Below are positions 1 through 18,268 of a stretch of 18,490 nt of DNA, one piece after another. Where the stretch lies: IMG/VR virus record IMGVR_UViG_2563366965_000003, positions 1-18,490 of that record; one strand, given 5' to 3'. The translations under genes and the position numbers were made by a program. The stretch's first letter is position 1. Each line of letters starts with the position of its first letter. Origin of the DNA: a virus. Lineage: Duplodnaviria; Heunggongvirae; Uroviricota; Caudoviricetes. The notes under the pieces were generated by a model. That model was given only the letters and a program-made list of their open reading frames with translations. It was not told the DNA's origin and made no database searches.

Positions 1-204
1 CTAAATCAGTAAGTTGGCAGCATCACCATCTACGCCTTCCCTGAAAAATAGTTTCCCAGCCACTCCACATTTACTTGAAGGGCAGGTATGTCTTTCCGTT
101 CGATCAACAACAACCCAAAGTCTTGATTCATTTTTTGCCATTGCCGATGGTATTTGAGATGAGACAATTAACGTAAGCCCTAAAATTAGTATTGATTTTT
201 TCAT
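1..204 (-). CDS. small secreted protein of unknown function (prophage accessory gene)
   Basis: 67-aa ORF with stop at 1-3; N-terminus MKKSILILGLTLIVSSQIPSAMA resembles a Sec signal peptide; no family recognised. Confidence 0.4.
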   Translation of the reverse strand: MKKSILILGLTLIVSSQIPSAMAKNESRLWVVVDRTERHTCPSSKCGVAGKLFFREGVDGDAANLLI

Positions 205-502
205 TGTAATTTCCTTTTACTTTTTACAAAGCGTTTAATCATGGCTGATTATCTTTAAGCGTAGTAACAGCCTTGTGCGAAACATGTTACCAAATCGCCA
301 TTTCAGTGTATCCGCAGTTAGGCTGCCACTTCAAGGATTCCTAATTACATGGTACGTAAGCGTAAAATCCCGTTGGTTGTCGGGTAATAACTCTGATCAA
401 ATCTCCCTTGTCTTTTGCTCTTACGTATGCAGCTCTTGTGTATTCAACCCAGGCCTCCAGTTCAGCAATACGCTTACTTCCATCCGAGATAACACCTTCT
501 AC

Positions 503-754
503 TCACGCTGCTCGTTGAGTTTTGATTTTTGCTGTCTCCAGCTCAACACGCAGTTTCCTCACCGTTAGCGCAATATCCTCGTTCTCCTGGTCGCGGCGTT
601 TGATGTACTGCTGGTTTCTTTCCCGTTCATCCAGCAGTGTCAGCACAATCGATGGTGTTACCAGCTCATGGAAAAGGTCCGCGTCAAATCCCCAGTTGTC
701 ATGCATTGCCTGCTCTGCCGCTTCACGCAGTGCCTGAGAGTGAATTACGCTCAC
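503..754 (-). CDS. hypothetical phage early-left protein
   Basis: 83-aa ORF; start overlaps stop of upstream minus-strand gene by 4 nt (751-754), consistent with operon coupling; charged, helical-looking sequence; no family recognised. Confidence 0.45.
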   Translation of the reverse strand: MSVIHSQALREAAEQAMHDNWGFDADLFHELVTPSIVLTLLDERERNQQYIKRRDQENEDIALTVRKLRVELETAKIKTQRAA

Positions 755-972
755 TTCGAACCTCTCTGTTTACTGATAAGTTCCAGATCCTCCTGGCAAC
801 TTGCACAAGTCCGACAACCCTGAACGGCCAGGCGTCTTCGTTCATCTATCGGATCGCCACACTCACAACAATGAGTGGCAGATATAGCCTGGTGGTTCAG
901 GCGGCGCATTTTTATTGCTGTGTTGCGCTGTAATTCTTCAATTTCTGATGCTGAATCAATGATGTCTGCCAT
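751..972 (-). CDS. TraR/DksA-family C4 zinc-finger protein (lambda Orf73-like)
   Basis: 73 aa; C-terminal CxxC-(17)-CxxC motif (CCECGDPIDERRRLAVQGCRTCASC) typical of TraR/DksA zinc fingers; same length and position class as lambda orf73 (from memory). Confidence 0.7.
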   Translation of the reverse strand: MADIIDSASEIEELQRNTAIKMRRLNHQAISATHCCECGDPIDERRRLAVQGCRTCASCQEDLELISKQRGSK

Positions 973-1021
973 CTTTCATTAATCCCTGAATTGTTGGTTA
1001 ATACGCTTGAGGGTGAATGCG

Positions 1022-1048
1022 AATAATAAAAAAGGAGCCTGTAGCTCC
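1022..1048 (-). terminator. putative intrinsic terminator (minus strand) in early-left operon
   Basis: GGAGC/GCTCC 5-bp stem (1034-1038 / 1044-1048) followed on the minus strand by TTTTTTATTATT (plus-strand A-run 1022-1033). Confidence 0.35.
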
Positions 1049-1070
1049 CTGATGATTTTGCTTTTCATGT

Positions 1071-1352
1071 TCACCGTTCCTTAAAAACGCCGTTTAACAT
1101 GCCGATTGCTAGACTTAAATGAGTCGGTGTGAATCCCATCAGCGTTACCGTTTCGCGGTGCTTCTTCAGTACGCTACGGCAAATGTCATCGACGTTTTTA
1201 TCCGGAAACTGCTGTCTGGCTTTTTTGATTTCAGAATTAGCCTGACGGGCAATGCTGCGAAGGGCGTTTTCCTGCTGAGGTGTCACTGAACAAGCCCCAT
1301 GTCGGCAAGCATAAGCACACAGAATATGAAGCCCGCTGCCAGAAAAATGCAT
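1071..1352 (-). CDS. hypothetical phage protein
   Basis: 93-aa ORF between orf63-like and Orf73-like genes, same strand; true start uncertain; no family recognised. Confidence 0.4.
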   Translation of the reverse strand: MHFSGSGLHILCAYACRHGACSVTPQQENALRSIARQANSEIKKARQQFPDKNVDDICRSVLKKHRETVTLMGFTPTHLSLAIGMLNGVFKER

Positions 1353-1362
1353 TCAGTGGTTG

Positions 1363-1554
1363 TCATACCTGGTCTCTCTCATCTGCTTCTGCTTTCGCCA
1401 CCATCATTTCCAGTTTTTGTGAAAGGGATGTGGCTAACGTATGAAATTCTTCGTCTGTTTCTACTGGTATTGGCACAAACCTGATTCCAATTTGAGCAAG
1501 GCTATGTGCCATCTCGATACTCGTTCTTAACTCAACAGGAGATGCTTTGTGCAT
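1363..1554 (-). CDS. lambda orf63-like small protein
   Basis: 63 aa; overlaps downstream orf60a-like ORF by 28 nt, the overlap I recall for lambda orf63/orf60a; sits immediately downstream of exo as in lambda. Confidence 0.55.
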   Translation of the reverse strand: MHKASPVELRTSIEMAHSLAQIGIRFVPIPVETDEEFHTLATSLSQKLEMMVAKAEADERDQV

Positions 1555-1709
1555 ACAGCCCCTCGTTTATTATTTATCTCCTCAGCCAGCCGCTGTGCTT
1601 TCAGTGGATTTCGGATAACAGAAAGGCCGGGAAATACCCAGCCTCGCTTTGTAACGGAGTAGACGAAAGTGATTGCGCCTACCCGGATATTATCGTGAGG
1701 ATGCGTCAT
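1527..1709 (-). CDS. lambda orf60a-like small protein
   Basis: 60 aa from the second Met of the listed ORF ([14 protein letters not shown]...); ATG overlaps exo TGA stop as ATGA; position matches lambda orf60a. Confidence 0.55.
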
Positions 1710-2386
1710 CGCCATTGCTCCCCAAATACAAAACCAATTTCAGCCAGTGCCTCGTCCATTTTTTCGATGAACACCGGCACCATCTCGTCAAAACTCGCCA
1801 TGTACTTTTCATCCCGCTCAACCACGACATAATGCGGTCCTTCACGCTTCATACGCGGGTCATAGTTGGCAAAGTACCAGGCATCTTTTCGTGTCACCCA
1901 CATGCTGTACTGCACCTGGGCCATGTAAGCCGACTTTATGGCCTCGAAACCACCGAGCCGGAACTTCATGAAATCCCGGGAGGTAAACGGGCATTTCAGC
2001 TCAAGGCCATTGCCGTCACTGCATAAACCATCGGGAGAGCAGGCGGTGCGCATACTTTCGTCGCGATAGATGATCGGGGATTCAGTAACATTCACGCCGG
2101 AAGTGAATTCAAACAGGGTTCTGGCGTCGTTCTCGTACTGTTTTCCCCATGCCAGCGCCTTAGCATTAACTTCCGGAGCCACACCGGTGCAAACCTCAGC
2201 CAGCAGGGTGTGGAAGTAGGACATTTTCATGTCAGGCCACTTCTTTCCTGAGCGGGGCTTGGCTATCACGTTGTGAACTTCTGAAGCGGTGATGACGCCG
2301 AGCCGTAATTTGTGCCATGCATCATCCCCCTGTTCGACAGCTCTCACGTCGATCCCGGTACGCTGCAGGATAATGTCCGGTGTCAT
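1706..2386 (-). CDS. exo: lambda exonuclease (Red-alpha), intact
   Basis: 226 aa, essentially identical to lambda Exo as I recall it ([65 protein letters not shown]...). Confidence 0.95.
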
Positions 2387-2829
2387 GCTGCCACCTTCTG
2401 CTCAGTGGCTTTCTGTTTCAGGAATCCAAGAGCTTTCACTGCTTCGGCCTGTGTCAGTTCTGACGATGCGCGAATGTCGCGGCGAAATATCTGGGAACAG
2501 AGCGGCAATAAGTCGTCATCCCATGTTTTGTCCAGGGCAATCAGCAGAGTGTTAATCTCCTGCATGGTTTCATCGTTAACCGGAGTAATGTCGCGTTCCG
2601 GCTGACGTTCTGCGGTGTATGCGGTATTTTCGACAATGCGCTCGGCTTCATCCTTGTCATAGATACCAGCAAATCCGAAGGCCAGACGGGCACACTGAAT
2701 CATGGCTTTATGCCGTAACATCCGTTTGGGATGCGACTGCCACGGCCCCGTAATTTCTCTGCCTTCGCGGGTTTTGAATGGTTCGCGGCGGCATTCATCC
2801 ATCCACTCGGTAACGCAGATCGGATGATT
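2383..2829 (-). pseudogene. bet: 5'-truncated bet (Red-beta) remnant; only about the C-terminal 149 codons remain
   Basis: Translation from 2829 downward matches the lambda Bet C-terminal half (..NHPICVTEWMDECRREPFKTREGREITGPWQSHPKRMLRHKAMIQCARLAFGFAGIYDKDEAERIVEN..); similarity stops at about 2830 and an in-frame stop lies at 2839-2841; N-terminal annealing domain absent. Confidence 0.85.
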
Positions 2830-2988
2830 ACCGGTTCGCTACCAGGGAAGAACGGGAAGGAAAGGTGAGCACGAATCTGATTTTCAAGGAGTGTCGCCAG
2901 AGTGCCGCGATGAAGCGGGTGTTGGCATTTTATCGCGGCAATTTTCAATAGACTATGTACATAAAAATATCATTTTTTTAATACATGT

Positions 2989-3180
2989 CTAATTATTGGA
3001 CGAAATTGGTTTTTGCTTTGGTTTAGTTAGCCTAGCAATCAAGCCAGAGGCAATAATGATGATCCAAGCAATTTGATGCAATGCTACTCCAATATAAGAA
3101 CCTTTATAGATAATAAAGGCATAGATCGCTAGAAACGAAATAAATATCCATAACGAAAGTTGATAAATTTTGGCGCGCAT
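2989..3180 (-). CDS. small two-helix hydrophobic membrane protein
   Basis: 63 aa from ATG at 3180 (MRAKIYQLSLWIFISFLAIYAFIIYKGSYIGVALHQIAWIIIIASGLIARL...); two hydrophobic stretches; AT-rich; divergent from the lipoprotein operon. Confidence 0.35.
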   Translation of the reverse strand: MRAKIYQLSLWIFISFLAIYAFIIYKGSYIGVALHQIAWIIIIASGLIARLTKPKQKPISSNN

Positions 3181-3436
3181 ATTTAATCCAATCAATCAGA
3201 AAGACGAGTAATCATAGAGGTACTATCACCCGGGTAACTATTGCTATTATGAACGGATAGGATAGAGGCTTCAATAACATATGCATCAAGTATGATGGAA
3301 TATGTAGGTGAAAATGACTTGTGTCAAATTTGTGGAAATGAGTACCATGTTTCTCTGAAATTGATGTCGTTAATGGCTAGTGATAGTGAACTTTTTTACT
3401 TTATAATTCCTTTGGTTATAACAATAAGGTAAATTT

Positions 3437-3997
3437 ATGAAGAAGATAATATTATTAGCCATGATTATTGGTTCTTTAACAGGTTGCGCTAGTGTGCCAC
3501 CATTGAATTTTTCAACACCTAACGTGGGAGTTAGCCAGAAAAAAATAGATGCTGAAATTAAGTCATTAACGGTATCACTTGCTCGTCCAGATGAGCAGAA
3601 AGGGGATATCACTGCTGGTATGGAGGCTATAACTCCAATTTGGCGTGAATCTTTGCAGGAAGCACTCGACCGAATGACTATTTTTCGTGATAGTTCACCA
3701 AATACGGTTAGCTTAAATGTTAAAGTGTTGGCTCTTGACGTTCCTGCTTTTGGTGTTTCAATGACAACTAAAGCAATTGCAAGGTATGAAATAATCAACC
3801 GTGCGAATGGTGATATTATATATACGCAGGATATTGAGTCTACCGGTACTGTTCCAGCCAGTTACGCATTCTACGGTATTGTTCGAGCACGCGAATCTGT
3901 TAATCGCGCGGTGCAAAACAACATAACGCAGTTCTTGCAAGCATTAGAAAGTGTTGATCTTTCTCGTCCAATGTTTCCTGTTAGGGTAGCTAAATGA
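3437..3997 (+). CDS. lipoprotein of unknown function, likely outer-membrane targeted
   Basis: 186 aa; signal peptide plus lipobox MKKIILLAMIIGSLTG-C (Cys17, +2 Ala); stop overlaps next gene start (ATGA); faint pattern resemblance to YajG-type lipoproteins, from memory only. Confidence 0.7.
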   Translation: MKKIILLAMIIGSLTGCASVPPLNFSTPNVGVSQKKIDAEIKSLTVSLARPDEQKGDITAGMEAITPIWRESLQEALDRMTIFRDSSPNTVSLNVKVLALDVPAFGVSMTTKAIARYEIINRANGDIIYTQDIESTGTVPASYAFYGIVRARESVNRAVQNNITQFLQALESVDLSRPMFPVRVAK

Positions 3998-4446
3998 AGC
4001 GATTATTCGTAATTGCTCCACTCTTAGTGTTGGTTGGATGCGCACAAAATATATCGCCAAATAGTTATTCTGTTGGCTCTGTGGGCATGGTTAATCGAAC
4101 TATCGCTGGTACAGTTATTAGTGCTAGGGGGGTTGATATCAGTGGGACTTCCGCGTTAGGCGGGACTGCTGGGGCTGCCGTGGGGGCAACCGCTGGTTCT
4201 GCGCTTGGTGGGGGAGTTCGTTCTAATATCGTTGGTGCCGTTGGTGGTGCAGTCATTGGTGGTATTGCCGGGGCAGCAATCGAATCTTCAGCAACAAAAC
4301 AAACAGGCATGGAATATGTTGTCGAAACTGAGAATGGGAATTTAATGACCATTGTTCAAGGCAAAGATCCGTTATTTACTCAAGGAAGTAAGGTCCTTGT
4401 TTTATACGGAAACCCTTCTCGCATAATAACAGACCCGCGTCACTAA
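3994..4446 (+). CDS. SlyB-like glycine-zipper outer-membrane lipoprotein (PCP / 17-kDa-antigen family)
   Basis: 150 aa; lipobox LLVLVG-C (Cys16); long Gly/Ala-rich zipper GTSALGGTAGAAVGATAGSALGGGVRSNIVGAVGGAVIGGIAGAAI followed by a beta-rich C-terminal domain; overall architecture parallels E. coli SlyB. Confidence 0.75.
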   Translation: MKRLFVIAPLLVLVGCAQNISPNSYSVGSVGMVNRTIAGTVISARGVDISGTSALGGTAGAAVGATAGSALGGGVRSNIVGAVGGAVIGGIAGAAIESSATKQTGMEYVVETENGNLMTIVQGKDPLFTQGSKVLVLYGNPSRIITDPRH

Positions 4447-4636
4447 CATACCTTTTGATTTTGTAAAATCAATTCGTAATAATAAAGTCATCGGAGCTTG
4501 AACAACTCCGGTGACTTCTGCGCTAAACGGGGACGTTTATGCGCACATACAATCCAAACTCTCTTCTCCCTTCACAGATGCAGAAATGCACCTGCGATTT
4601 TTTGCATCCAGCGTCTGACCTCTGCGGAGGTGAAGC

Positions 4637-5092
4637 GTGAACCTACCACAAGATGGCATCAAACTGCATCGCGGTAACTTCACCGCTATCGGCCAGCAGA
4701 TCCAGCCTTATCTGGAGGACGGAAAATGCTTTCGCATGGTGCTTAAACCGTGGCGTGAGAAACGCAGTCTTTCCCAGAATGCACTCAGCCACATGTGGTA
4801 CAGCGAAATCAGTGAATACCTCATCAGCAGGGGGAAATCGTTCGCTACCGCAGCATGGGTAAAAGATGCTCTCAAACACACATACCTCGGTTATGAAACC
4901 AAGGACCTGGTTGATGTCGTAACCGGCGAAATCACTACTATCCAGTCGTTACGCCATACCTCCGATCTTGATACCGGAGAGATGTATATCTTCCTGTGTA
5001 AGGTTGAAGCCTGGGCGGTGAATATTGGCTGCCACCTGACTATTCCGCAGAGCTGCGAGTTCCAGCAGCTCCGCGACAAACAGGAGGCGTAA
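4637..5092 (+). CDS. ninB: NinB-family recombination protein (DLP12 YbcN-like)
   Basis: 151 aa; GTG start after GGAGG; conserved NinB core ([21 protein letters not shown]); first gene of a coupled nin cluster. Confidence 0.8.
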
Positions 5093-5262
5093 TGGCTACA
5101 CCGCTTATTCGTGTCATGAACGGACACATCTACAGAGTACCAAATCGTCGTAAGCGTAAACCGGAGCTGAAGCCTTCCGAAATACCAACACTGTTCGGAT
5201 ATACCGCCAGCCTGGTTGATAAAAAATGGTTGCGACTGGCAGCAAGGAGGAGTCATGGCTGA
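5092..5262 (+). CDS. ninE: NinE-like small protein
   Basis: 56-codon ORF read by hand ([56 protein letters not shown]); ATG overlaps ninB stop (TAATG); below the ORF-track length cutoff. Confidence 0.6.
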   Translation: MATPLIRVMNGHIYRVPNRRKRKPELKPSEIPTLFGYTASLVDKKWLRLAARRSHG

Positions 5263-5545
5263 TTTGAGAAAAGCAGCGCGTGGTCGGGAATGCCAGGTAA
5301 GAATCCCTGGCGTATGTAATGGCAACCCTGAAACGTCTGTACTGGCACATATCCGGCTGACTGGATTGTGCGGCACCGGTACGAAACCGCCAGACCTGAT
5401 TGCCACCATTGCATGTTCTGCCTGCCACGACGAAATCGACCGCCGCACACATTTTGTCGATGCTGCATATGCAAAAGAATGCGCGCTGGAAGGTATGGCG
5501 AGAACACAGGTTATCTGGCTGAAAGAGGGGGTTATTAAGGCGTGA
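5255..5545 (+). CDS. DUF1364-type Cys-rich nin-region protein (DLP12 YbcO-like)
   Basis: 96 aa from ATG at 5255 preceded by AGGAGG; Cys-rich ([11 protein letters not shown]...CSACHDEID); overlaps ninE and rusA. Confidence 0.7.
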
Positions 5546-5904
5546 ATACCTACAGCATCACATTACCCTGGCCTCCGAGCAATAATCGCTATTACCGCCA
5601 TAATCGCGGGCGCACACACATCAGCGCAGAAGGGCAGGCATACCGCGATAACGTCACCCGAATCATTAAAAACGCAATGCTGGATATCGGCCTGGCTATG
5701 CCAGTGAAAATCCGTATTGAGTGCCACATGCCGGATCGCCGTCGCCGTGACCTGGATAATCTGCAAAAAGCCGCTTTTGACGCACTCACCAAAGCAGGTT
5801 TCTGGCTGGATGATGCTCAGGTCGTTGATTACCGCGTTGTGAAGATGCCTGTTACCAAAGGTGGGAGGCTGGAACTGACCATCACCGAAATGGGGAATGA
5901 ATGA
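5542..5904 (+). CDS. rusA: RusA Holliday-junction resolvase
   Basis: 120 aa matching E. coli RusA nearly throughout ([26 protein letters not shown]...[31 protein letters not shown]). Confidence 0.9.
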
Positions 5905-6041
5905 TGTTTGAGTTTAATATGGCAGAACTTCTTCGCCACCGCTGGATGCGCCTGCGCTTATATCGTTTCCCCAGTTCTGTTTTGACCGATTACCGAATAC
6001 TGAGGAATTACGCCAAAACCCTGACAGGAGCAGGAGTATGA
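5901..6041 (+). CDS. ylcG: YlcG-like small protein
   Basis: 46-codon ORF ([46 protein letters not shown]); ATG overlaps rusA stop (ATGA); same position as ylcG in DLP12. Confidence 0.5.
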
Positions 6042-6126
6042 AGTCAGAGATAACAATCAACTAATACTGTTTTATTGATTTTTGCTTGTAATTGGCGTTC
6101 TGGTCTGATTTTTGTGGAGTAAGTTG

Positions 6127-6510
6127 ATGCGTGATATTCAGATGGTTCTTGAGCGTTGGGGAGCGTGGGCGGCTAATAATCATGAAGATGTGACCTGGTC
6201 GTCCATTGCCGCCGGTTTTAAGGGATTAATTACTTCAAAAGTAAAATCTCGCCCGCAATGTTGTGACGATGACGCGATGATCATTTGCGGGTGCATGGCC
6301 CGTCTGAAAAAGAACAACAGCGATTTGCACGATTTATTAGTAGATTATTATGTAGTCGGTATGACATTCATGTCACTGGCAGGTAAGCATTGCTGCTCTG
6401 ATGGTTATATCGGGAAAAGGTTACAGAAGGCTGAGGGTATAATTGAAGGGATGTTAATGGCATTAGATATCCGGTTAGAGATGGATATCGTTGTTAATAA
6501 CTCTAATTAA
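6127..6510 (+). CDS. quuD: late-gene antiterminator Q (DLP12 QuuD-like)
   Basis: 127 aa from ATG at 6127 with GGAG 7 nt upstream (ORF track starts at TTG 6112); Cys-rich zinc-binding region ([13 protein letters not shown]...HCCSDG); directly follows rusA/ylcG as in lambdoid late-control modules. Confidence 0.75.
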
Positions 6511-6542
6511 TATGCCAATTGTTTACTAAAAATTATTAAAAA

Positions 6543-6560
6543 TGGGGCGTTGAGACGCCC
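6543..6560 (-). terminator. stem-loop; probable intrinsic terminator for the convergent porin gene
   Basis: GGGGCGT/ACGCCCC 7-bp stem; on the minus strand followed by ATTTTTAATAATTTTT; two further hairpins at 6628-6649 and 6650-6683 lie between Q and the porin stop. Confidence 0.4.
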
Positions 6561-6698
6561 CCAAAAATAAAGGGTAATATATAACAGAAGGTTTATATAG
6601 TTAGAAGCAAGGTTGTGCTCCTAAAGGAAGTGGCTTGAGGGAGCCACTTATATGTTGGGGAGGCAAAGCCTCCCGCAACATATCTTTTAGTAATCAAA

Positions 6699-7781
6699 TT
6701 AGAACTGGTAAACCATACCTACAGCAACGATATCATCGGTAGCAACGCCAGATGCTTTCGTGAAATCGCTCTTATCAATCAGGTTGATTTTGTAATCAAC
6801 AAAAGTGGACATATTTTTGTTGAAGTAATAGGTTGCACCTACATCAATATATTCAACCAGGTCCTGATCACCCCACGCACCCAAGTCTTTTCCTTTAGAT
6901 TGCAGGTAAGCAACGGACGGACGCAGACCGAAGTCGAACTGATATTGTGCAACTACTTCGAAGTTTTGTGCTTTGTTGGCAATATGGTTATTACCAAAAA
7001 CAGTCATGTTCTGGGTTTCAGAATAGGTGGTAGCCAGATAGATGTTGTTCGCATCATATTTCAGACCAGCTGCCCATACTTCAGCATTTTGACCAGATGC
7101 ATTCAGGCTGTTGTTACCGTAGATAACCTGATTATTAGTGCGGTCAGATTTAGCATAGGTTGCACCTACACCGAATCCTTCATACTCATAAGTAGTGGAG
7201 AAACCGAAACCATCACCATTAGCTTCAGTTACGTCAGTGCGGTCATTTTTACCCTGATACTGAGCAGCAAAGTTCAGACCATCAACCAGACCAAAGAAGT
7301 CATTGTTACGATAAGTTGCAACACCTGTGGTGCGACCAGTCATGAATACATCTGTTTGGGTCCAGGTATCGCCACCGAATTCTGGCAGAACGTCGGTCCA
7401 TGCACCAATATCGTATGCTACACCGTAGTTACGGCCATAATCGATGGAGCCGTAGTCACCGAATTTCAGGCCAGCGAAGGCAAGACGGGTTTTATCTTTG
7501 GAGGAACCTTGAGATTCAGCGCGGTTGCCTTTGAATTCATATTCCCACTGACCGAAACCAGTCAGTTGATCGTTGATTTGGGTTTCACCTTTGAAGCCAA
7601 GACGGGCATAAGTAGTATCACCATCATCTGCATCATTAGAGGAGAAGTAGTGCTTAGCATTAACTTTCCCGTACAGATCCAGCTTGTTACTGTCTTTATT
7701 ATAAATTTCAGCTGCCTGAGCAGACATCGCCATCAGTACTGATGCAGCTACAGCAGAAATTGCCACTGTTAATTTTTTCAT
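6699..7781 (-). CDS. nmpC: general porin, OmpC/NmpC/Lc family (prophage lysogenic-conversion porin), apparently intact
   Basis: 360 aa from ATG at 7781 ([23 protein letters not shown] signal peptide, AEIYNKD mature start, C-terminal ...VGMVYQF); sits between Q and the lysis cassette as nmpC does in DLP12 and lc in PA-2. Confidence 0.85.
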
Positions 7782-8207
7782 CGTGAGCCCTTTTTTTGAA
7801 CTATTATTAAAAAATGATGTCACTGCGCGATAAATATTCATCTAATCAATGTGATTATTTCAAGATGTAAGTTTTGGTTTCTCATTTGATTTGTGAAGTA
7901 GATCTCTATTTTTATCTGAACTTTTTCTATCGAATCCTATTCATGGCTCTTGGCTGAATAAAAATAAATCTATTAGCCAATTTATATTAATGGCTGTTAT
8001 TTATGAGTGCTCTATAATTTGAAGATTCAATTTAAACCAGCTAAAAATAACGCTGGAAATTATTTGTTGGTTATTTGTTGAGATTTGCTTATGTATTTGT
8101 AGTGGTGTTTTCAATACTCGGTAGCATTCTCGCAAATATCATTTAGTGGTTTACGTACGTAAAAAATTGGTTATGCTGTTAAGAGTGGTTACTTCGTCAC
8201 ACAGCTT

Positions 8208-8236
8208 AAACCCGCCGTCGAGCGGGTTTTTCCATT
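8208..8236 (+). terminator. intrinsic terminator upstream of the lysis cassette (tR'-like)
   Basis: AAACCCGC cgtcga GCGGGTTTTTCCATTTTTT: GC-rich stem followed by T-runs on the plus strand, about 130 nt upstream of the holin start. Confidence 0.45.
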
Positions 8237-8368
8237 TTTTGAGTCTCGATATTAGCTGATAACCCAATACCTGAGTTATTCACTGACTCCGAGTCTGTTA
8301 CGTTTCTGCTTTTTTGCGATACGTTGTATTCCCTCAATTTACACCCGCTTTGTCTGCGAGGTGGGGTT

Positions 8369-8584
8369 ATGAAATCCATGGATAAGTTAACAACGGGTGT
8401 CGCCTATGGCACCTCAGCAGGTAGTGCCGGTTACTGGTTTTTACAGCTGCTCGATAAAGTCACGCCCTCACAGTGGGCAGCAATAGGTGTGCTGGGTAGC
8501 CTGGTATTTGGCCTGCTGACGTACCTGACAAACCTTTATTTCAAGATTAAAGAAGATAAGCGCAAGGCTGCGAGAGGTGAATAA
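8369..8584 (+). CDS. essD: class II pinholin (phage 21 S21 / DLP12 EssD type) with dual-start motif
   Basis: 71 aa ([26 protein letters not shown]...[15 protein letters not shown]); Met1-Lys-Ser-Met4 dual start; GAGGTGGGG upstream; two TMDs. Confidence 0.85.
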
Positions 8585-9081
8585 TGCCTCCATCATTACG
8601 AAAAGCCGTTGCTGCTGCTATTGGTGGCGGAGCAATTGCTATAGCATCAGTGTTAATTACTGGCCCAAGTGGTAACGATGGTCTGGAAGGTGTCAGCTAC
8701 GTACCATACAAAGATATCGTTGGCGTATGGACTGTATGTCACGGACACACCGGAAAAGACATCATGCTCGGTAAAACGTATACCAAAGCAGAATGCAAAG
8801 CACTCTTGAATAAAGACCTTGCCACTGTCGCCAGACAAATTAACCCGTACATCAAAGTCGATATACCGGAAACAACGCGCGGCGCTCTTTACTCATTCGT
8901 TTACAACGTGGGTGCTGGCAATTTCAGAACATCGACGCTTCTTCGCAAAATAAACCAGGGCGATATCAAAGGCGCATGTGATCAGCTACGTCGCTGGACA
9001 TATGCTGGCGGTAAGCAATGGAAAGGTCTCATGACTCGTCGTGAGATTGAGCGTGAAATCTGTTTGTGGGGTCAGCAATGA
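8584..9081 (+). CDS. rrrD: SAR endolysin (phage 21 R21 / DLP12 RrrD-type lysozyme)
   Basis: 165 aa; Gly/Ala-rich weakly hydrophobic N-terminal signal-anchor-release domain ([18 protein letters not shown]) then lysozyme domain; ATG overlaps holin stop (TAATG). Confidence 0.85.
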
Positions 9082-9539
9082 ACAGAGTAACCGCGATTAT
9101 CTCCGCTCTGGTTATCTGCATCATCGTCTACCTGTCATGGGCTGTTAATCATTACCGTGATAACGCCATTACCTACAAAGCCCAGCGCGACAAAAATGCC
9201 AGAGAACTGAAGCTGGCGAACGCGGCAATTACTGACATGCAGATGCGTCAGCGTGATGTTGCTGCGCTCGATGCAAAATACACGAAGGAGTTAGCTGATG
9301 CGAAAGCTGAAAATGATGCTCTGCGTGATGATGTTGCCGCTGGTCGTCGTCGGTTGCACATCAAAGCAGTCTGTCAGTCAGTGCGTGAAGCCACCACCGC
9401 CTCCGGCGTGGATAATGCAGCCTCCCCCCGACTGGCAGACACCGCTGAACGGGATTATTTCACCCTCAGAGAGAGGCTGATCACTATGCAAAAACAACTG
9501 GAAGGAACCCAGAAGTATATTAATGAGCAGTGCAGATAG
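9078..9539 (+). CDS. rzpD: Rz i-spanin (lambda type)
   Basis: 153 aa from ATG at 9078 ([29 protein letters not shown]...), matching lambda Rz except a few residues; N-terminal TMD. Confidence 0.85.
9298..9480 (+). CDS. rzoD: Rz1 o-spanin lipoprotein, embedded in the +1 frame of Rz
   Basis: 60 aa ([24 protein letters not shown]...[16 protein letters not shown]); lipobox VVG-C, proline-rich; wholly inside the Rz reading frame. Confidence 0.8.
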
Positions 9540-9570
9540 AGTTGCCCATATCGATGGGCAACTCATGCAA

Positions 9571-9864
9571 TTATTGTGAGCAATACACACGCGCTTCCAG
9601 CGGAGTATAAATGCCTAAAGTAATAAAACCGAGCAATCCATTTACGAATGTTTGCTGGGTTTCTGTTTTAACAACATTTTCTGCGCCGCCACAAATTTTG
9701 GCTGCATCGACAGTTTTCTTCTGCCCAATTCCAGAAACGAAGAAATGATGGGTGATGGTTTCCTTTGGTGCTACTGCTGCCGGTTTGTTTTGAACAGTAA
9801 ACGTCTGTTGAGCACATCCTGTAATAAGCAGGGCCAGCGCAGTAGCGAGTAGCATTTTTTTCAT
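9571..9864 (-). CDS. bor: Bor lipoprotein (serum-resistance lysogenic-conversion protein)
   Basis: 97 aa (MKKMLLATALALLITGCAQQTFTVQNKPAAVAPKETITHHFFVSGIGQKKTVDAAKICGG...), lambda Bor as I recall it. Confidence 0.9.
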   Translation of the reverse strand: MKKMLLATALALLITGCAQQTFTVQNKPAAVAPKETITHHFFVSGIGQKKTVDAAKICGGAENVVKTETQQTFVNGLLGFITLGIYTPLEARVYCSQ

Positions 9865-10154
9865 GGTGTTATTCCCGATGCTTTTTGAAGTTCGCAGAAT
9901 CGTATGTGTAGAAAATTAAACAAACCCTAAACAATGAGTTGAAATTTCATATTGTTAATATTTATTAATGTATGTCAGGTGCGATGAATCGTCATTGTAT
10001 TCCCGGATTAACTATGTCCACAGCCCTGACGGGGAACTTCTCTGCGGGAGTGTCCGGGAATAATTAAAAACGATGCACACAGGGTTTAGCGCGTACACGT
10101 ATTGCATTATGCCAACGCCCCGGTGCTGACACGGAAGAAACCGGACGTTATGAT

Positions 10155-10688
10155 TTAGCGTGGAAAGATTTGTGTAGTGTTCTGAATGCTCTCAGTAAAT
10201 AGTAATGAATTATCAAAGGTATAGTAATATCTTTTATGTTCATGGATATTTGTAACCCATCGGAAAACTCCTGCTTTAGCAAGATTTTCCCTGTATTGCT
10301 GAAATGTGATTTCTCTTGATTTCAACCTATCATAGGACGTTTCTATAAGATGCGTGTTTCTTGAGAATTTAACATTTACAACCTTTTTAAGTCCTTTTAT
10401 TAACACGGTGTTATCGTTTTCTAACACGATGTGAATATTATCTGTGGCTAGATAGTAAATATAATGTGAGACGTTGTGACGTTTTAGTTCAGAATAAAAC
10501 AATTCACAGTTTAAATCTTTTCGCACTTGATCGAATATTTCTTTAAAAATGGCAACCTGAGCCATTGGTAAAACCTTCCATGTGATACGAGGGCGCGTAG
10601 TTTGCATTATCGTTTTTATCGTTTCAATCTGGTCTGACCTCTTTGTGTTTTGTTGATGATTTATGTCAAATATTAGGAATGTTTTCAC
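10155..10688 (-). CDS. DUF1398-type protein (DLP12 YbcV-like / lambda right-end orf)
   Basis: 177-aa ORF (alternative start at internal MQTTRPR gives about 150 aa); position after bor matches the lambda/DLP12 right end. Confidence 0.65.
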
Positions 10689-10850
10689 TTAATAGTATTG
10701 GTTGCGTAACAAAGTGCGGTCCTGCTGGCATTCTGGAGGGAAATACAACCGACAGATGTATGTAAGGCCAACGTGCTCAAATCTTCATACAGAAAGATTT
10801 GAAGTAATATTTTAACCGCTAGATGAAGAGCAAGCGCATGGAGCGACAAA

Positions 10851-11057
10851 ATGAATAAAGAACAATCTGCTGATGATCCCTCCGTGGATCTGATTCGTGT
10901 AAAAAATATGCTTAATAGCACCATTTCTATGAGTTACCCTGATGTTGTAATTGCATGTATAGAACATAAGGTGTCTCTGGAAGCATTCAGAGCAATTGAG
11001 GCAGCGTTGGTGAAGCACGATAATAATATGAAGGATTATTCCCTGGTGGTTGACTGA
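10851..11057 (+). CDS. YbcW-like small protein
   Basis: 68 aa ([40 protein letters not shown]...); position and length as DLP12 ybcW. Confidence 0.5.
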
Positions 11058-11221
11058 TCACCATAACTGCTAATCATTCAAACTATTTAGCCTGTGACAG
11101 AGCCAACACGCAGTCTGTCACTGTCAGGAAAGTGGTAAAACTGCAACTCAATTACTGCAATGCCCTCGTAATTAAGTGAATTTACAATATCGTCCTGTTC
11201 GGAGGGAAGAACGCGGGATGT

Positions 11222-11416
11222 TCATTCTTCATCACTTTTAATTGATGTATATGCTCTCTTTTCTGACGTTAGTCTCCGACGGCAGGCTTCAATGACCCAG
11301 GCTGAGAAATTCCCGGACCCTTTTTGCTCAAGAGCGATGTTAATTTGTTCAATCATTTGGTTAGGAAAGCGGATGTTGCGGGTTGTTGTTCTGCGGGTTC
11401 TGTTCTTCGTTGACAT
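11222..11416 (-). CDS. YlcI-like small basic protein (DUF3950)
   Basis: 64 aa (MSTKNRTRRTTTRNIRFPNQMIEQINIALEQKGSGNF...); last gene before cos as in the lambda/DLP12 right end. Confidence 0.55.
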   Translation of the reverse strand: MSTKNRTRRTTTRNIRFPNQMIEQINIALEQKGSGNFSAWVIEACRRRLTSEKRAYTSIKSDEE

Positions 11417-11559
11417 GAGGTTGCCCCGTATTCAGTGTCGCTGATTTGTATTGTCTGAAGTTGTTTTTACGTTAAGTTGATGCAGATCAATTAATACGAT
11501 ACCTGCGTCATAATTGATTATTTGACGTGGTTTGATGGCCTCCACGCACGTTGTGATAT

Positions 11560-11800
11560 GTAGATGATAATCATTATCACTTTACGGGTCCTTTCCGGTG
11601 ATCCGACAGGTTACGGGGCGGCGACCTCGCGGGTTTTCGCTATTTATGAAAATTTTCCGGTTTAAGGCGTTTCCGTTCTTCTTCGTCATAACTTAATGTT
11701 TTTATTTAAAATACCCTCTGAAAAGAAAGGAAGCGACAGGTGCTGAAAGCGTGCTTTTTGGCCTCTGTCGTTTCCTTTCTCTGTTTTTGTCCGTGGAATG
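11560..11800. other. lambda cos site (cosQ-cosN-cosB); cosN 12-nt cohesive end at 11616-11627
   Basis: ...TTACGGGTCCTTTCCGGTGATCCGACAGGTTACG | GGGCGGCGACCTCGCGGGTTTTCGCTATTTATGAAAATTTTCCGGTTTAAGGCG... reproduces the lambda right and left genome ends as I recall them. Confidence 0.85.
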
Positions 11801-11804
11801 AACA

Positions 11805-11864
11805 ATGGAAGTCAACAAAAAGCAGCTGGCTGACATTTTCGGTGCGAGTATAAGTTCTGATTAG
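11805..11864 (+). pseudogene. nu1: nu1 (terminase small subunit) stump: 16 native codons, then deletion junction and premature stop
   Basis: ATGGAAGTCAACAAAAAGCAGCTGGCTGACATTTTCGGTGCGAGTAT = MEVNKKQLADIFGASI; identity to lambda ends at about 11851, followed by SSD-stop. Confidence 0.75.
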
Positions 11865-11886
11865 CCAGGTAACACAGTGTTATGAC

Positions 11887-11914
11887 AGCCCGCCGGTTCA
11901 GGCGGGCTTTTTTG
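11887..11914 (+). terminator. intrinsic terminator immediately upstream of stf
   Basis: AGCCCGCC ggttca GGCGGGCT followed by TTTTTT. Confidence 0.55.
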
Positions 11915-11924
11915 TGGGGTGAAT

Positions 11925-14888
11925 ATGGCAGTAAAGATTTCAGGTGTACTGAAAGACAGCACAGGAAAACCGGTACAGAACTGCACAATCCAGCTGAAAG
12001 CAAAACGTAACAGCACCGCGGTGGTGGTGAACACGCTGGCCTCAGAAAATCCGGATGAAGCCGGGCGTTACAGCATGGACGTTGAGTACGGTCAGTACAG
12101 CGTTATTCTGTTGGTGGAAGGATTCCCGCCGTCACATGCCGGGACCATCACCGTGTATGAAGATTCCCGACCCGGTACGCTGAATGATTTTCTCGGTGCC
12201 ATGACGGAGGATGATGCCCGTCCGGAGGCTCTGCGCCGTTTTGAACTGATGGTGGAAGAGGTGGCGCGTAACGCGTCCGCAGTGGCACAGAACACGGCAG
12301 CCGCGAAGAAGTCAGCCAGTGATGCCAGCACATCTGCCAGTGAGGCGGCAACTCATACAACCGATGCTGCAGGCTCAGCTCGTGCCGCCAGCACGTCAGC
12401 CGGACAGGCTGCATCATCTGCTCAGTCAGCATCTTTCAGCGCAGGAACGGCATCAACAAAGGCCAGTGAAGCATCGAAAAGTGCTGCTGCTGCAGAGTCC
12501 TCAAAAAGCGCGGCAGCTACCAGTGCCGCTGCGGCGAAAACGTCAGAAACGAATGCGGCAGCGTCACAACAATCAGCAGCCACTTCTGCATCCGCCGCGA
12601 CCACGAAGGCGTCAGAAGCTGCCACCTCAGCCCGGGATGCGGCGGCCTCAAAAGAGGCGGCAAAATCATCAGAAACGAGCGCAGCCTCGAGCGCCAGTAG
12701 TGCAGCCTCCTCGGCAACAGCGGCAGGAAATTCCGCGAAGGCGGCAAAAACGTCCGAGACGAACGCTAAGTCTTCTGAGACGGCAGCAGCACAGAGTGCC
12801 TCCGCAGCAGCAGACTCAAAAACAGCGGCTGCCTCATCTGCCAGCGCCGCGTCAACAAATGCCGGGCAGGCCTCAGCCAGTGCCACCGCTGCCGGAAAGT
12901 CGGCAGAAAGCGCCGCATCATCCGCTTCAACAGCCACAACGAAGGCTGGCGAAGCCACTGAACAGGCCACGGCAGCAGCGAGGTCAGCTTCCGCAGCGAA
13001 GACATCCGAAACGAACGCGAAAGCGTCGGAAACCAGCGCAGAATCCTCAAAAACGGCTGCCGCATCGTCAGCCAGTTCGGCGGCGTCATCGGCATCATCG
13101 GCGTCTGCTTCAAAAGATGAGGCGACCAGACAGGCGTCAGCAGCGAAGGGCAGCGCCACGACGGCATCCACGAAGGCGACAGAGGCAGCTGGCAGTGCGA
13201 CGGCGGCAGCTCAGAGCAAAAGTACGGCGGAATCCGCGGCAACGCGCGCCGAGACAGCAGCAAAACGGGCAGAGGATATTGCATCCGCCGTGGCGCTTGA
13301 GGATGCGAGCACGACGAAAAAGGGGATAGTACAGCTCAGCAGTGCGACTAACAGCACTTCCGAGTCACTGGCGGCAACGCCAAAAGCCGTTAAGGCCGCG
13401 TATGAGCTGGCTAACGGGAAATACACCGCACAGGATGCAACGACAGCACAGAAAGGGATAGTTCAGCTTAGCAACGCGACCAACAGCACATCTGAAATGC
13501 TGGCGGCAACGCCAAAGTCGGTAAAGGCAGCCTATGACCTTGCTAACGGGAAATATACTGCTCAGGACGCTACGACAGCACAAAAAGGAATTGTCCAGCT
13601 CAGTAGTGCAACCAACAGCGCATCTGAAACGCTTGCCGCGACACCGAAAGCAGTGAAAGCAGCTAATGATAATGCGAATGGTCGGGTACCTTCTGCCCGT
13701 AAGGTGAATGGTAAGGCGCTTTCAGCGGATATAACACTGACGCCGAAAGATATTGGTACGCTTAACTCAACAACAATGTCATTCAGCGGTGGTGCTGGTT
13801 GGTTCAAATTAGCAACGGTAACCATGCCACAGGCGAGTTCTGTTGTTTCAATTACGTTGATTGGTGGCGCGGGATTTAACGTGGGGTCACCTCAACAGGC
13901 AGGTATATCTGAACTTGTTTTGCGTGCAGGTAATGGTAATCCGAAGGGGATTACTGGTGCTTTATGGCAGCGCACATCGACAGGGTTTACAAATTTTGCC
14001 TGGGTCAATACATCTGGTGATACTTACGATATTTACGTTGCAATCGGAAATTATGCGACTGGTGTAAATATTCAATGGGATTATACCAGTAATGCCAGCG
14101 TGACGATTCATACGTCACCAGCATATTCTGCTAATAAGCCGGAAGGGTTAACGGACGGTACAGTTTATTCACTCTATACGCCATCAGAGCAGTTTTATCC
14201 GCCTGGCGCACCAATCCCGTGGCCATCAGATACCGTTCCGTCTGGCTATGCCCTGATGCAGGGGCAGACTTTTGACAAATCTGCATACCCGAAACTTGCA
14301 GCCGCTTATCCGTCAGCCGTGATCCCTGATATGCGTGGCTGGACGATTAAGGGCAAACCCGCCAGTGGTCGTGCCGTATTGTCTCAGGAACAGGACGGCA
14401 TTAAATCGCACACCCACAGCGCCAGCGCATCCAGTACGGATTTGGGGACGAAAAACACATCGTCGTTTGATTACGGAACCAAATCCACGAATAACACCGG
14501 GGCGCATACCCATAGTATTAGCGGGACTGCAAATAGTGCCGGTGCGCACCAACACAAGAGTTCCGGTGCATTTGGTGGCACGAACACGAGCATTTTCCCT
14601 AATGGTTATACCGCGATTTCAAATCTAAGCGCGGGGATTATGAGCACAACAAGCGGTAGTGGCCAGACTCGTAATGCAGGGAAGACATCATCAGATGGTG
14701 CTCATACCCACTCGCTGTCCGGCACTGCTGCAAGCGCAGGCGCACATGCACATACTGTCGGTATTGGTGCTCATACGCACTCCGTTGCGATTGGCTCACA
14801 CGGACACACCATCACCGTTAACGCTGCTGGTAACGCGGAAAACACCGTCAAAAACATCGCATTTAACTATATTGTGAGGCTTGCATAA
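11925..14888 (+). CDS. stf: side tail fibre protein Stf (lambda-type, expanded repeats)
   Basis: 987 aa from ATG 11925 ([31 protein letters not shown]...), lambda Stf N-terminus; Ala/Ser/Thr-rich shaft; three tandem fibre repeats; His-rich tip ending ...[14 protein letters not shown]. Confidence 0.9.
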
Positions 14889-15469
14889 TGGCATTCAGAA
14901 TGAGTGAACAACCACGGACCATAAAAATTTATAATCTGCTGGCCGGAACTAATGAATTTATTGGTGAAGGTGATGCATATATTCCGCCTCATACAGGTCT
15001 GCCAGCAAACAGTACCGATATTGCACCGCCAGATATTCCGGCTGGCTTCGTGGCTGTTTTCAACAGTGATGAGTCATCGTGGCATCTTGTTGAAGACCAT
15101 CGGGGTAAAACAGTTTATGACGTGGCATCAGGGGACGCGTTATTTATTTCTGAACTCGGCTCATTACCGGAAAATGTTACCTGGTTATCCCCGGAAGGGG
15201 AGTTTCAGAAGTGGAACGGCACAGCCTGGGTGAAGGATACGGAAGCAGAAAAACTGTTCCGGATCCGGGAGGTGGAAGAAACAAAAAACAGCCTGATGCA
15301 GGTAGCCAGTGAGCATATAGCGCCGCTTCAGGATGCTGTGGATCTGGAAATCGCAACGGAGGAAGAAACCTTGTTGCTGGAAGCCTGGAAAAAGTATCGG
15401 GTATTGCTGAACCGTGTTGATACGTCAACTGCACAGGATATTGAATGGCCAGTAGCACCTATAGGGTAA
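14888..15469 (+). CDS. tfa: tail fibre assembly chaperone Tfa
   Basis: 193 aa ([54 protein letters not shown]...), lambda Tfa; ATG overlaps stf stop (TAATG). Confidence 0.9.
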
Positions 15470-15549
15470 ATTCGTAATGATTACCTAAATACGTTATTCT
15501 TTTGTTCAAAAAGTGATTTTGCTATAGATAGGGAGTATGTTCTTGGATT

Positions 15550-15584
15550 AAGAATAAAAATCGCCATGAAAGAGCTTCATGGCG
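15550..15584 (-). terminator. putative minus-strand intrinsic terminator in the tfa-att spacer
   Basis: 9-bp stem CGCCATGAA/TTCATGGCG (15562-15584); on the minus strand followed by ATTTTTATTCTT. Confidence 0.35.
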
Positions 15585-16327
15585 AGTACATAAACGTACA
15601 AAATGTGATGAAAGTAGAGTGGCGTAAGCCACTATATTAAGATGTGACAATAGCGAAGAAAAGTAAATAACATTTTATGGACGTTTAATTGTTAATTATA
15701 AAAACTAGAGTGCCCGATATTGTTTACCTTGCTTTAAAATAATGTACTCAAACCAAATTTTTGAGCTAAAAGCTCAAATAATATAAATGCAATAATAATG
15801 TTTAATAAGACAATTAGCTTGCTTTGTATTTTCATTTCGGAATACTGTTAAGTAACTTTGATGACCCTAACAATAGATCGGAATTTTCTTAGAGTCAATG
15901 GTCACTGTTTTTGCTTGCAAAGCAAATGTTTTGGTGGTTATAAGTTGTCTTAATATAGTCACGCATGCAACTTGTTCCATGCGGAGATTAAAGATTGGAA
16001 TATAACGCTAAGATGGAATTAAATTACATTTGCAATAATCAATTTATTATTACTCAATAATTACCGATATTATTATTGTAAATTAATCATTAGAGTGCAA
16101 AAAGAAATGTAACGGCAAAATAAGAGGACGATAGCTGAGAAAAAAGCGTGCTTTCCCAATCTGGGGCAAATCACGTCTGAATGACACCTGAAAACAGGTG
16201 GTAGCCTCAAGAAGGCTTGGAATATTCTTCTTTAATGTTATGTAATTCATTGATTTTTCGTGTACGATTTAAAGACATTTATTCCAAGAAAAATTTTTAA
16301 CTCTTTGATTTTTCGACTCTGTATCAT

Positions 16328-16389
16328 CGGTCTCGAAAACCGGAGTAGGGGCAACTCTACCGGGGGTTCAAATCCCCCTCTCTCCGCCA
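16328..16389 (+). tRNA. partial tRNA-Ser(CGA) (serU-like), 3' 62 nt only; probable prophage attR core
   Basis: CGGTCTCGAAAACCGGAGTAGGGGCAACTCTACCGGGGGTTCAAATCCCCCTCTCTCCGCCA = anticodon stem-loop (CGA), long variable arm, T-arm, 3' acceptor strand and CCA; no complementary 5' acceptor strand (GGAGAGA) upstream. Confidence 0.7.
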
Positions 16390-18229: not shown

Positions 18230-18268
18230 ACAGACACCTCAGAGTCATTTAAGATGGCTTAAAGAGAG

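Follow-up and report, generated by a model that had tools for sequence, protein, structure and literature searches.

The question raised by this locus is what occupies the DNA between the antiterminator gene Q and the lysis genes of a lambdoid prophage, and where the late promoter of the element is placed. The window, i.e. the whole stretch of DNA that was analysed, has a length of 18,490 nucleotides (IMG/VR virus record IMGVR_UViG_2563366965_000003, positions 1 to 18,490). By alignment, the module between Q and the lysis genes was identified as a porin moron of the DLP12/PA-2 nmpC/lc type, a 1.64-kb cassette on the minus strand located between a Q933W-type Q and its putative late promoter, pR'. 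The 3' untranslated region (3'UTR) of the porin gene corresponds to the small RNA (sRNA) IpeX, and a segment of IpeX is complementary to the leader of ompC. The identity of these parts is regarded as highly probable. Identity and layout taken together, that is a porin with its own expression, an IpeX 3'UTR and a late-gene circuit, are considered probable. The genes and the control region concerned are as follows.

6127 to 6510, plus strand: Q antiterminator of the QuuD type, 127 amino acids, Q21/Q933W family (Pfam PF06530, E=3.5e-53).
6699 to 7781, minus strand: porin gene of the Lc/NmpC type, 360 amino acids, with a 23-residue signal peptide by identity with Lc and the C-terminus ...VYQF.
7782 to 8149, minus strand: porin upstream region (leader, promoter and regulatory DNA), AT-rich, with a CRP site annotated in PA-2.

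The minus-strand open reading frame 6699-7841 was the sole long one between the Q stop at 6510 and the holin start at 8369. The start codon of the porin was placed at ATG 7781, giving a gene of 360 codons that is read from 7781 to 6699 and is convergent with Q. The product covers positions 1-337 of 337 of Pfam Porin_1 (PF00267, E=3e-153), full-length and undisrupted, and aligns end to end with the solved chains of OmpC, OmpK36, PhoE and OmpF (E about 1e-135). Alignment with PA-2 Lc gave 330 identical residues out of 365, with 0 frameshifts and 0 stops. Residues 1-60 are the same as in Lc, for which a signal peptide of 23 residues is annotated, and the C-terminus VYQF carries the C-terminal aromatic residue needed for outer-membrane assembly. 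The original prediction of an intact OmpC/NmpC/Lc-type porin convergent to Q was confirmed on these points: the protein is an intact general porin of the OmpC/OmpF/PhoE family, Lc/NmpC subgroup, and would assemble into a trimeric 16-strand pore in the outer membrane. It departs from Lc at about 35 residues and by two short indels, mostly in three blocks. The differences cluster at residues about 181-190, 218-236 and 263-268, and the remainder of the two proteins is nearly identical. The three blocks are taken to be surface loops, a pattern that would be expected under selection by phages or immunity.

The region 5900-8700 was found to be 92-98% identical to about 35 lambdoid phage genomes, in which Q, a porin (annotated as 'OmpD', 'NmpC' or 'OmpC'), a holin and a lysozyme are annotated in that order. 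The module is 98% identical to ECOR and ev lambdoid phages, and the porin DNA is 93% identical to nmpC of 434B/DLP12. Among 5,426 complete E. coli genomes, 80% or more of 6100-8400 is present in at least 2,398, with the annotation quuD, porin and essD. The locus was already known from PA-2 lc, DLP12 nmpC and IpeX and, being present in nearly half of the complete E. coli genomes, is ordinary as a finding.

The upstream region of the porin has a G+C content of 29.6%, compared to 45.3% for the window. For lc of PA-2 a CRP site is annotated upstream of the gene, and an identical sequence is present in the window at 7889-7909. No promoter hexamers reached the threshold in a scan of the upstream region for the sigma-70 consensus. 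In regards to the features by which a moron is recognized, the cassette has a visible terminator of its own and a CRP site annotated in PA-2, and its promoter hexamers were not located by the consensus scan. The control elements of the porin are present in the window, and the PA-2 literature suggests that they are active. The porin would be transcribed from its own promoter within 7782-8149, independently of the late programme of the phage.

The late promoter and the first late genes were assigned as follows.

8150 to 8184, plus strand: putative late promoter pR', with the palindrome TTTACGTACGTAAA at 8150-8163, a 16-nt spacer, the -10 hexamer TATGCT at 8172-8177 and a transcription start at about 8184.
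8180 to 8207, plus strand: invariant initially transcribed block (TAAGAGTGGTTAC...CAC), from six phages and the consensus of 65 distinct IMG/VR sequences.
8208 to 8240, plus strand: terminator tR', a stem-loop at 8208-8229 with an 8-bp stem, followed by the T-run UUUUUCCAUUUUUU.
8369 to 8584, plus strand: S21-type pinholin/antiholin, the first late gene, with dual starts at ATG 8369 and ATG 8378 (Pfam PF04971, E=2e-35).
8584 to 9081, plus strand: endolysin of the RrrD type (Pfam PF00959, E=8e-46), annotated as rrrD in a near-identical genome.

Q of the window, with rusA upstream of it, is 78% identical to Q of 933W over 125 residues and gave a distant match to the solved Q21 structures. Its homology to other Q proteins stops after ...RLEMD, which is the cargo junction. 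When 7842-8368 was used as the query of a sensitive search, its part 8149-8231 aligned with about 280 Shiga-toxin (Stx) and other lambdoid phages at the extreme end of their Q genes. In the 933W record, the region matching 8149-8231 is the annotated pR' and tR'. An alignment was made of the window, PA-2, SfII, PhiR55_1, 1720a-02 and 933W. An invariant block, TAAGAGTGGTTAC…CAC…AACCCGCC…GCGGGTTTT, was present in these six diverged phages, together with a -10 hexamer in which an A and a T (A8173 and T8177 in the window) are invariant. The first six bases of the palindrome 8150-8163 occupy the -35 position. The window has a single copy of the core TAAGAGTGGTTAC, at 8180-8192, and the block 8180-8207 is a candidate for the pause and Q-loading part of qut. 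A second 'CRP site' in the 1986 record of PA-2 maps to 8184-8204, i.e. to the invariant initially transcribed block, and is probably a pattern match on qut and not a CRP site. The hairpin of tR' is conserved in 933W, SfII, PhiR55_1, 1720a-02 and PA-2, and a terminated pR' RNA of about 48-57 nt is predicted. The tR'-like terminator that had been pointed out before the holin is thereby recovered as the stem at 8208-8229 and its T-run.

pR' was placed by this comparison, and by analogy with the arrangement annotated in phage 21, at 8150-8184 with tR' directly after it, 1.64 kb downstream of Q and past the porin cassette, instead of immediately downstream of Q. A transcription start near 8184 is proposed because of the homology to the mapped start of 933W. 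Sy et al. found the start and the 3' end of the Stx-phage pR' transcript to be 258 nt apart by dRNA-seq (differential RNA sequencing) and Term-seq, and in 933W the mapped ends are consistent with initiation 7 nt past TATCAT and with a 3' end within the U-run of the terminator 966-993.

The canonical arrangement, known from lambda, 21 and 933W, would have the late promoter directly behind Q, and late transcription would then run antisense across the porin for 1.7 kb. The hairpin 6650-6683 and the CTTTTAG following it on the plus strand could pass for a weak tR'. This arrangement is nevertheless very improbable here. Neither a promoter-like site nor a copy of the conserved late-promoter motif of the family was found in 6511-6700 by promoter scan and motif search, in agreement with the earlier remark that a pR'/qut site is not obvious right after Q. 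The homologue of the 933W promoter and hairpin lies at 8149-8231, and other cargo in the interval between Q and pR' leaves the same motif 3' of the cargo. The late promoter had previously been suspected in the AT-rich segment 7850-8200. This was correct as far as the right-hand edge of that segment is concerned, where pR' is placed, whereas its AT-rich body (7782-8149) is the porin upstream region.

Some observations weigh against a promoter at 8150-8184. The -35 and -10 hexamers are weak, with 8/12 matches, and fall below the scan threshold. No convincing direct-repeat Q-binding element (QBE) like that of Q21 was seen at pR' of the window, and no convincing hexamer for a sigma-dependent pause (-10-like) was seen 3' of the proposed start. 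The start itself rests on an alignment of published coordinates from another genome version.

With pR' at 8150-8184, the promoter would fire constitutively and transcription would stop at tR', yielding an RNA of roughly 50 nt. By homology with 933W and phage 21, the Q protein from the gene at 6127-6510 would be loaded at this promoter, over a distance of 1.64 kb, and transcription could then pass tR' into S, R and Rz. The first late genes are the lysis genes S21 holin, lysozyme and Rz, and dual starts of the holin are also annotated in 434B and phage 21. The sole strong terminator before S in the window is the promoter-proximal hairpin. An observation on 933W itself was made at this point. A strong hairpin with a run of seven U is present at 759-786, about +24 to +51 of the pR' transcript, yet the published precursor of StxS is 258 nt long and ends at the second terminator (966-993). 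Either the first hairpin of 933W terminates poorly, or short products escaped probing.

The distance between Q and pR' was followed in other phages by scanning IMG/VR for the core motif. The scan gave 120 loci, 101 of them with a PF06530 Q upstream. The distance from Q to the motif ranged from 6 nt to 2.5 kb; the gap was at most 61 nt in 25 of the 101 loci and 0.6-2.5 kb in the other 76. By sequence, the longer gaps were sorted into 23 classes, nearly all of them encoded opposite to Q. Porin with IpeX is the largest class, with 34 loci. Other cargo comprises Kiwa (KwaB, E=2e-150, with a membrane partner), PDC-S20 (E=1e-177), an HNH/PDC-M68A-like protein, NA37-like pairs, an α/β-hydrolase and lipoproteins, and several two-gene sets had no match in Pfam or PADLOC. 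Among the aligned phages, Q abuts pR' in 933W and 1720a-02, and the gap holds one minus-strand gene in PhiR55_1 and two in SfII. The slot in the window corresponds to 6511-8149, and the porin cassette is best described as cargo inserted between Q and its own putative pR'. The cassette can be called a moron because homologous phages without it have Q and pR' adjacent to each other. No explicit description of a defence hotspot between Q and pR' was found in a literature search.

The palindrome over the -35 position, 10-14 bp long, was found to co-vary perfectly with the Q cluster (clusters at 85% identity), independently of the cargo in between. It reads TTTACG(T/A)(A/T)CGTAAA in the cluster of the window and 933W, ACGCGTACGC with SfII-like Qs and GCGGTCCGC with 1720a-like Qs. 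That the palindrome tracks the Q cluster supports the distant promoter as the cognate target of the upstream Q. The palindrome 8150-8163 is offered as a lead, a candidate Q-binding element of the Q933W-like subfamily. Physical linkage could give the same pattern of palindrome and Q.

The DNA between the stop codons of Q and the porin was the next part of the locus to be accounted for. Three hairpins had been described there and taken to bracket the porin together with the terminator upstream of the holin. All three were recovered, at 6544-6561 (one base off from the earlier 6543-6560), 6628-6649 and 6650-6683. They are not mere brackets, being part of the 3'UTR of the porin on the minus strand, with the elements given below.

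6532 to 6698, minus strand: porin 3'UTR corresponding to the IpeX sRNA, about 167 nt from the stop codon to the T-run of the terminator, with inferred ends.
6650 to 6683, minus strand: stem-loop 1, 15 pairs with one bulge and a loop of 3, directly after the porin stop codon.
6628 to 6649, minus strand: stem-loop 2, 8 bp with a loop of 6, C-rich (CCCUCA).
6601 to 6624, minus strand: stem-loop 3, 9 bp, in which one-sided G-U/A-U changes are tolerated.
6578 to 6599, minus strand: weak AU hairpin, from the minus-strand fold.
6538 to 6561, minus strand: intrinsic terminator of porin and IpeX, GGGGCGU-CUCA-ACGCCCC followed by A UUUUU, with the hairpin at 6544-6561 (7 bp, loop of 4).

IpeX is described in reviews as an RNA of 167 nt from DLP12 and PA-2 that is made from the porin promoter within the porin transcript and lowers OmpC and OmpF. 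In the literature it is described as being processed from the mRNA of the porin and as acting on the two host porins at the post-transcriptional level. The IpeX sRNA of Castillo-Keller, Vuong and Misra (2006) has the same locus, strand and sequence, is structured and has an intrinsic terminator at its end. An RNA of 167 nt that begins with the first base past the porin stop codon would span 6698 to 6532 and would end in the T-run past the hairpin 6544-6561. The spacer 6511-6698 is 98% identical to the spacer between nmpC and quuD of the K-12 DLP12 prophage. PA-2 and DLP12 are identical to each other across the IpeX spacer, and the ipeX region of PA-2 is 97.5% identical to the window. Among the 120 IMG/VR loci, which had been retrieved for another purpose, a match to IpeX was found in 34 of the 34 with Q and porin and in none of those without a porin.

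Folding of the minus strand of 6525-6701 gave a minimum free energy of -64.6 kcal/mol (z=-8.8), and 0 of 200 shuffled sequences folded as well. Five stem-loops are predicted, four and the terminator, of which 6601-6624 and 6578-6599 come in addition to the three reported before. A terminator scan called the hairpin 6544-6561 on the minus strand only. Stem-loop 1 with the CTTTTAG that follows it on the plus strand may act as a weak terminator of Q read-through. A scan of 5900-8700 against Rfam at E≤1 gave no match to IpeX, just a sub-threshold Trp-leader match on the tR' hairpin. Transcription of the porin would continue for about 167 nt beyond the stop codon, across four stem-loops and up to the terminator 6544-6561, and this portion is IpeX.

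The translation initiation region of ompC from K-12 was compared with IpeX, and the following two complementary segments were found.

6579 to 6593, minus strand: anti-ompC helix 1, IpeX RNA AACCUUCUGUUAUAU against positions -20 to -6 of the ompC leader (AUAUAACAGAGGGUU), 15 contiguous pairs over the Shine-Dalgarno sequence.
6565 to 6573, minus strand: anti-ompC helix 2, IpeX RNA CCUUUAUUU against positions -30 to -22 of the ompC leader (AAAUAAAGG), nine pairs, single-stranded in the predicted fold.

Helix 1 consists of 14 Watson-Crick pairs and 1 G·U pair, and its IpeX segment is located in the loop and the 3' arm of the weak AU hairpin 6578-6599. The two helices are parted by a small internal loop. 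The seed is part of a stretch with little structure, located between stem-loop 3 and the terminator, and the anti-ompC segment is invariant across 20 IpeX variants. As for the ompC target, 5,353 of 5,426 genomes have it with an identity of 99% or more. The C-rich loop CCCUCA of stem-loop 2 had also been considered as an anti-Shine-Dalgarno seed; it offers merely 5-6 bp and was dropped for the match of 15+9 bp.

Runs of 15 or more pairs occurred in 0.175% of 4,000 random genomic windows of 45 nt and in 2 of 3,000 shuffles of IpeX. The bipartite duplex of IpeX and ompC was calculated at -26.7 kcal/mol (z=-4.2), a value reached by 0 of 500 shuffles. The same computation gave -26.5 kcal/mol for MicC and ompC and -27.4 kcal/mol for MicF and ompF, about equal to that of IpeX and ompC. 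With the cost of unfolding charged, the change in free energy on cofolding was -21.6 kcal/mol for ompC, -13.1 for ompF, -4.4 for the leader of the cassette's own porin and -3.3 for ompA. These values fit a model in which the IpeX segment between stem-loop 3 and the terminator would pair with the ompC leader and block ribosome binding in the way of MicC and MicF, with weaker pairing to ompF and none with ompA or the cassette's own porin leader. We lean towards this model: IpeX would be a classical 3'UTR-derived antisense sRNA, with a seed at 6565-6597 that would form 24 bp with the leader of ompC, the Shine-Dalgarno sequence included, and would pair less strongly with ompF, and the porin cassette would be a self-contained 'swap' device. 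One transcript would supply a new porin and silence the resident ones, and the phage porin would thereby replace the host porins. Repression by IpeX is reported to be independent of Hfq for ompC and dependent on Hfq for ompF, which would fit strong pairing with the former and weak pairing with the latter. The presence of the porin cassette in a slot that otherwise carries anti-phage systems would suggest receptor replacement, a kind of superinfection defence, as the role for which it was selected.

Other results count against direct pairing. According to the reviews, IpeX does not base-pair with ompC or ompF, and complementary sequences are nonexistent. The longest exact matches between IpeX and ompC DNA are 10 and 9 nt, and the default word of BLAST is 11, so matches below the word length could explain the earlier negative report. 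The match to ompF taken by itself was not significant (z=-1.2). The ends of IpeX are assumed, from the stop codon of the porin and the T-run of the terminator. No compensatory pairs (0) were seen in the 13 distinct variants that were aligned out of 20 found; the substitutions lie in loops or yield G-U pairs, and the covariation test is uninformative rather than negative, the sequences being too similar. The plus strand of 6565-6597 closely resembles the leader of ompC, with an indel of 4 nt and identity at 26 of the 29 bases aligned, and this similarity may stem from an ancient porin leader and not from selection of a seed.

An alternative built on these points is that the hairpins between Q and the porin are mere terminators between convergent genes, that IpeX acts indirectly through factor titration or envelope stress, and that the match to ompC is chance or a vestige. 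The statements in reviews that IpeX acts by other means than base-pairing and that complementary sequences are lacking favour it, as do the alignment without covariation and the resemblance of the plus strand of 6565-6597 to a degraded ompC leader with its 4-nt indel, which fits a relic. This alternative is judged rather unlikely. A contiguous match of 15 bp to a single target chosen a priori has an empirical frequency of about 0.1-0.2%, and the match coincides exactly with the ompC Shine-Dalgarno sequence. Its energy equals that of the validated MicC and MicF duplexes. It is located in an unstructured stretch just 5' of the terminator, the usual seat of seeds in 3'UTR-derived sRNAs, and the negative controls, ompA and the cassette's own porin, show nothing. 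The direct-pairing model rests on computation against an a priori target with controls and contradicts statements made in reviews; its chances are put slightly above even.

The state of the surrounding prophage bears on which of these parts could still be active. The genome of strain 1332KP is 100% identical over 6100-8400, and there the element occupies the lambda attachment site, with ybhC on one side and ybhB/bioA on the other. The lambda-type exo is intact. RecT is truncated to 139 amino acids, the C-terminal part only, and abuts a ren fragment. The element lacks cI, cro, O and P, i.e. it has no immunity or replication region, and it has no head or tail-shaft genes. Its only virion genes are those of a side tail fibre of 989 amino acids and the assembly protein Tfa, directly after the lysis genes, bor and ybcV. 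What is present at the lambda attachment site is a decayed, defective lambdoid prophage. The proposal of lysogenic conversion is to be qualified, the term applying here to a domesticated remnant. With the prophage defective, Q is probably not expressed from the early promoter, and the porin/IpeX cassette would be the part most likely still in use.

It is possible, though held with some doubt, that the circuit of Q and pR' is dead in this prophage, that the lysis genes are controlled, if at all, by the host factors RpoE and Hha through the same upstream region, and that the conserved block is kept because decay was recent. With the immunity and replication region deleted and RecT fused to a ren fragment, there would be no pR to drive Q, and in the secondary literature control by RpoE and Hha is described for the S-R-Rz operon of DLP12, which also counts against the pR' proposed here. 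On the other hand, the window has intact copies of Q, pR', tR', S, R and Rz, and plaque-forming phages with 98% identity have this module in working form. A dead circuit would concern the present activity of the elements and not their identity.

Two further observations were made on cargo elsewhere in the element. A gene for the serum-resistance lipoprotein Bor is located at 9571-9864 on the minus strand, just after Rz and opposite to the late genes, and is a second lysogenic-conversion gene within the same 3 kb as the porin. In the nin region (3437-4446), two open reading frames are present on the plus strand. One is annotated as a YajG-family lipoprotein in a matching genome and had no Pfam match here; the other encodes a protein of 150 amino acids with a weak, sub-threshold glycine-zipper match. 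The two may be a further cargo pair.

What goes beyond the literature read is the complementarity of IpeX to ompC, and the gap between Q and pR' as a variable slot with a palindrome that co-varies with the type of Q. IpeX is quoted as an example of sRNA action in the absence of base pairing, and if pairing is confirmed an apparent exception to the rules for sRNAs would be removed. The late promoter of phages with a Q933W-type Q may be located up to 2.5 kb from Q, and the slot gives a way to mine lambdoid prophages for defence and conversion genes. A displaced pR' would explain why annotators miss pR' beside Q, including in relatives of the Shiga-toxin phages, in which pR' controls toxin release.

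Compared to known systems, the closest relative is the lc region of PA-2 (GenBank J02580.1, 1986), which is colinear and 93.2% identical over 2,814 nt in the order Rz-R-S-pR'-lc-IpeX-Q end. The DLP12 (qsr') prophage of E. coli K-12 has the order quuD-nmpC-essD-rrrD, with a spacer that is 98% identical. PA-2, DLP12 and the window are alike in gene order, orientations, sequence of the CRP site and type of holin and endolysin, and the likeness to PA-2 lc and DLP12 nmpC proposed at the outset was borne out, at 93% over 2.8 kb and at 98% in the spacer. In DLP12 of K-12 nmpC is interrupted by IS5, whereas the porin of the window is intact. A mutant of phage 434 that acquired the K-12 DLP12 region (434B) has the same order with nmpC::IS5. 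The element of the window is located at the lambda attachment site and not at the DLP12 site, and has decayed differently from DLP12.

The Stx phages, with 933W as the example, share with the window a homologous Q (78%), the promoter, the initially transcribed block and the first hairpin. In 933W, however, pR' overlaps the end of Q with no cargo in between, and the transcript runs 258 nt to a second terminator, its last 74 nt being StxS. No homologue of StxS was found in the window, and the part shared with the pR' transcript of 933W is the first roughly 50 nt alone. Phage 21 has a Q of the same Pfam family (about 30% identical), with Q and pR' adjacent. In the record of phage 21, a -35, a QBE, a -10, a start, and a pause element and terminator within +3 to +50 are followed by an S21-type holin and a signal-anchor-release (SAR) endolysin, an order paralleled in the window. 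The QBE of Q21 is a direct repeat (ATTGAGCA/AATGAGCA) between the -35 and the -10, whereas the element that tracks the type of Q in the window is a palindrome over the -35.

In regards to the RNA, IpeX is comparable to the pairs ompN-micC and ompC-micF, in each of which a porin gene is linked to an RNA that represses a competing porin. The genes of MicC and MicF are divergently transcribed, whereas IpeX is a 3'UTR on the porin mRNA. Overall homology of IpeX to MicC or MicF was not seen (no Rfam match), and the similarity is limited to a short local one with nt 16-42 of MicF. It involves nt 114-137 of IpeX (6562-6585, TTATATATTACCCTTTATTTTTG) and the ompF-binding part of MicF (TTATTTATTACCGTCATTCATTTCTG), and may reflect that both are antisense to similar porin leaders. 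Our own fold of MicC with ompC places the pairing of MicC at -46 to -13 of ompC, which overlaps that of IpeX at -30 to -6 and has the same energy, and the match of IpeX extends over the Shine-Dalgarno sequence itself. Compared to the published description of IpeX, the present one differs in interpretation and not in sequence: where the literature has no base pairing, a bipartite complementarity of the strength of MicC was found here.

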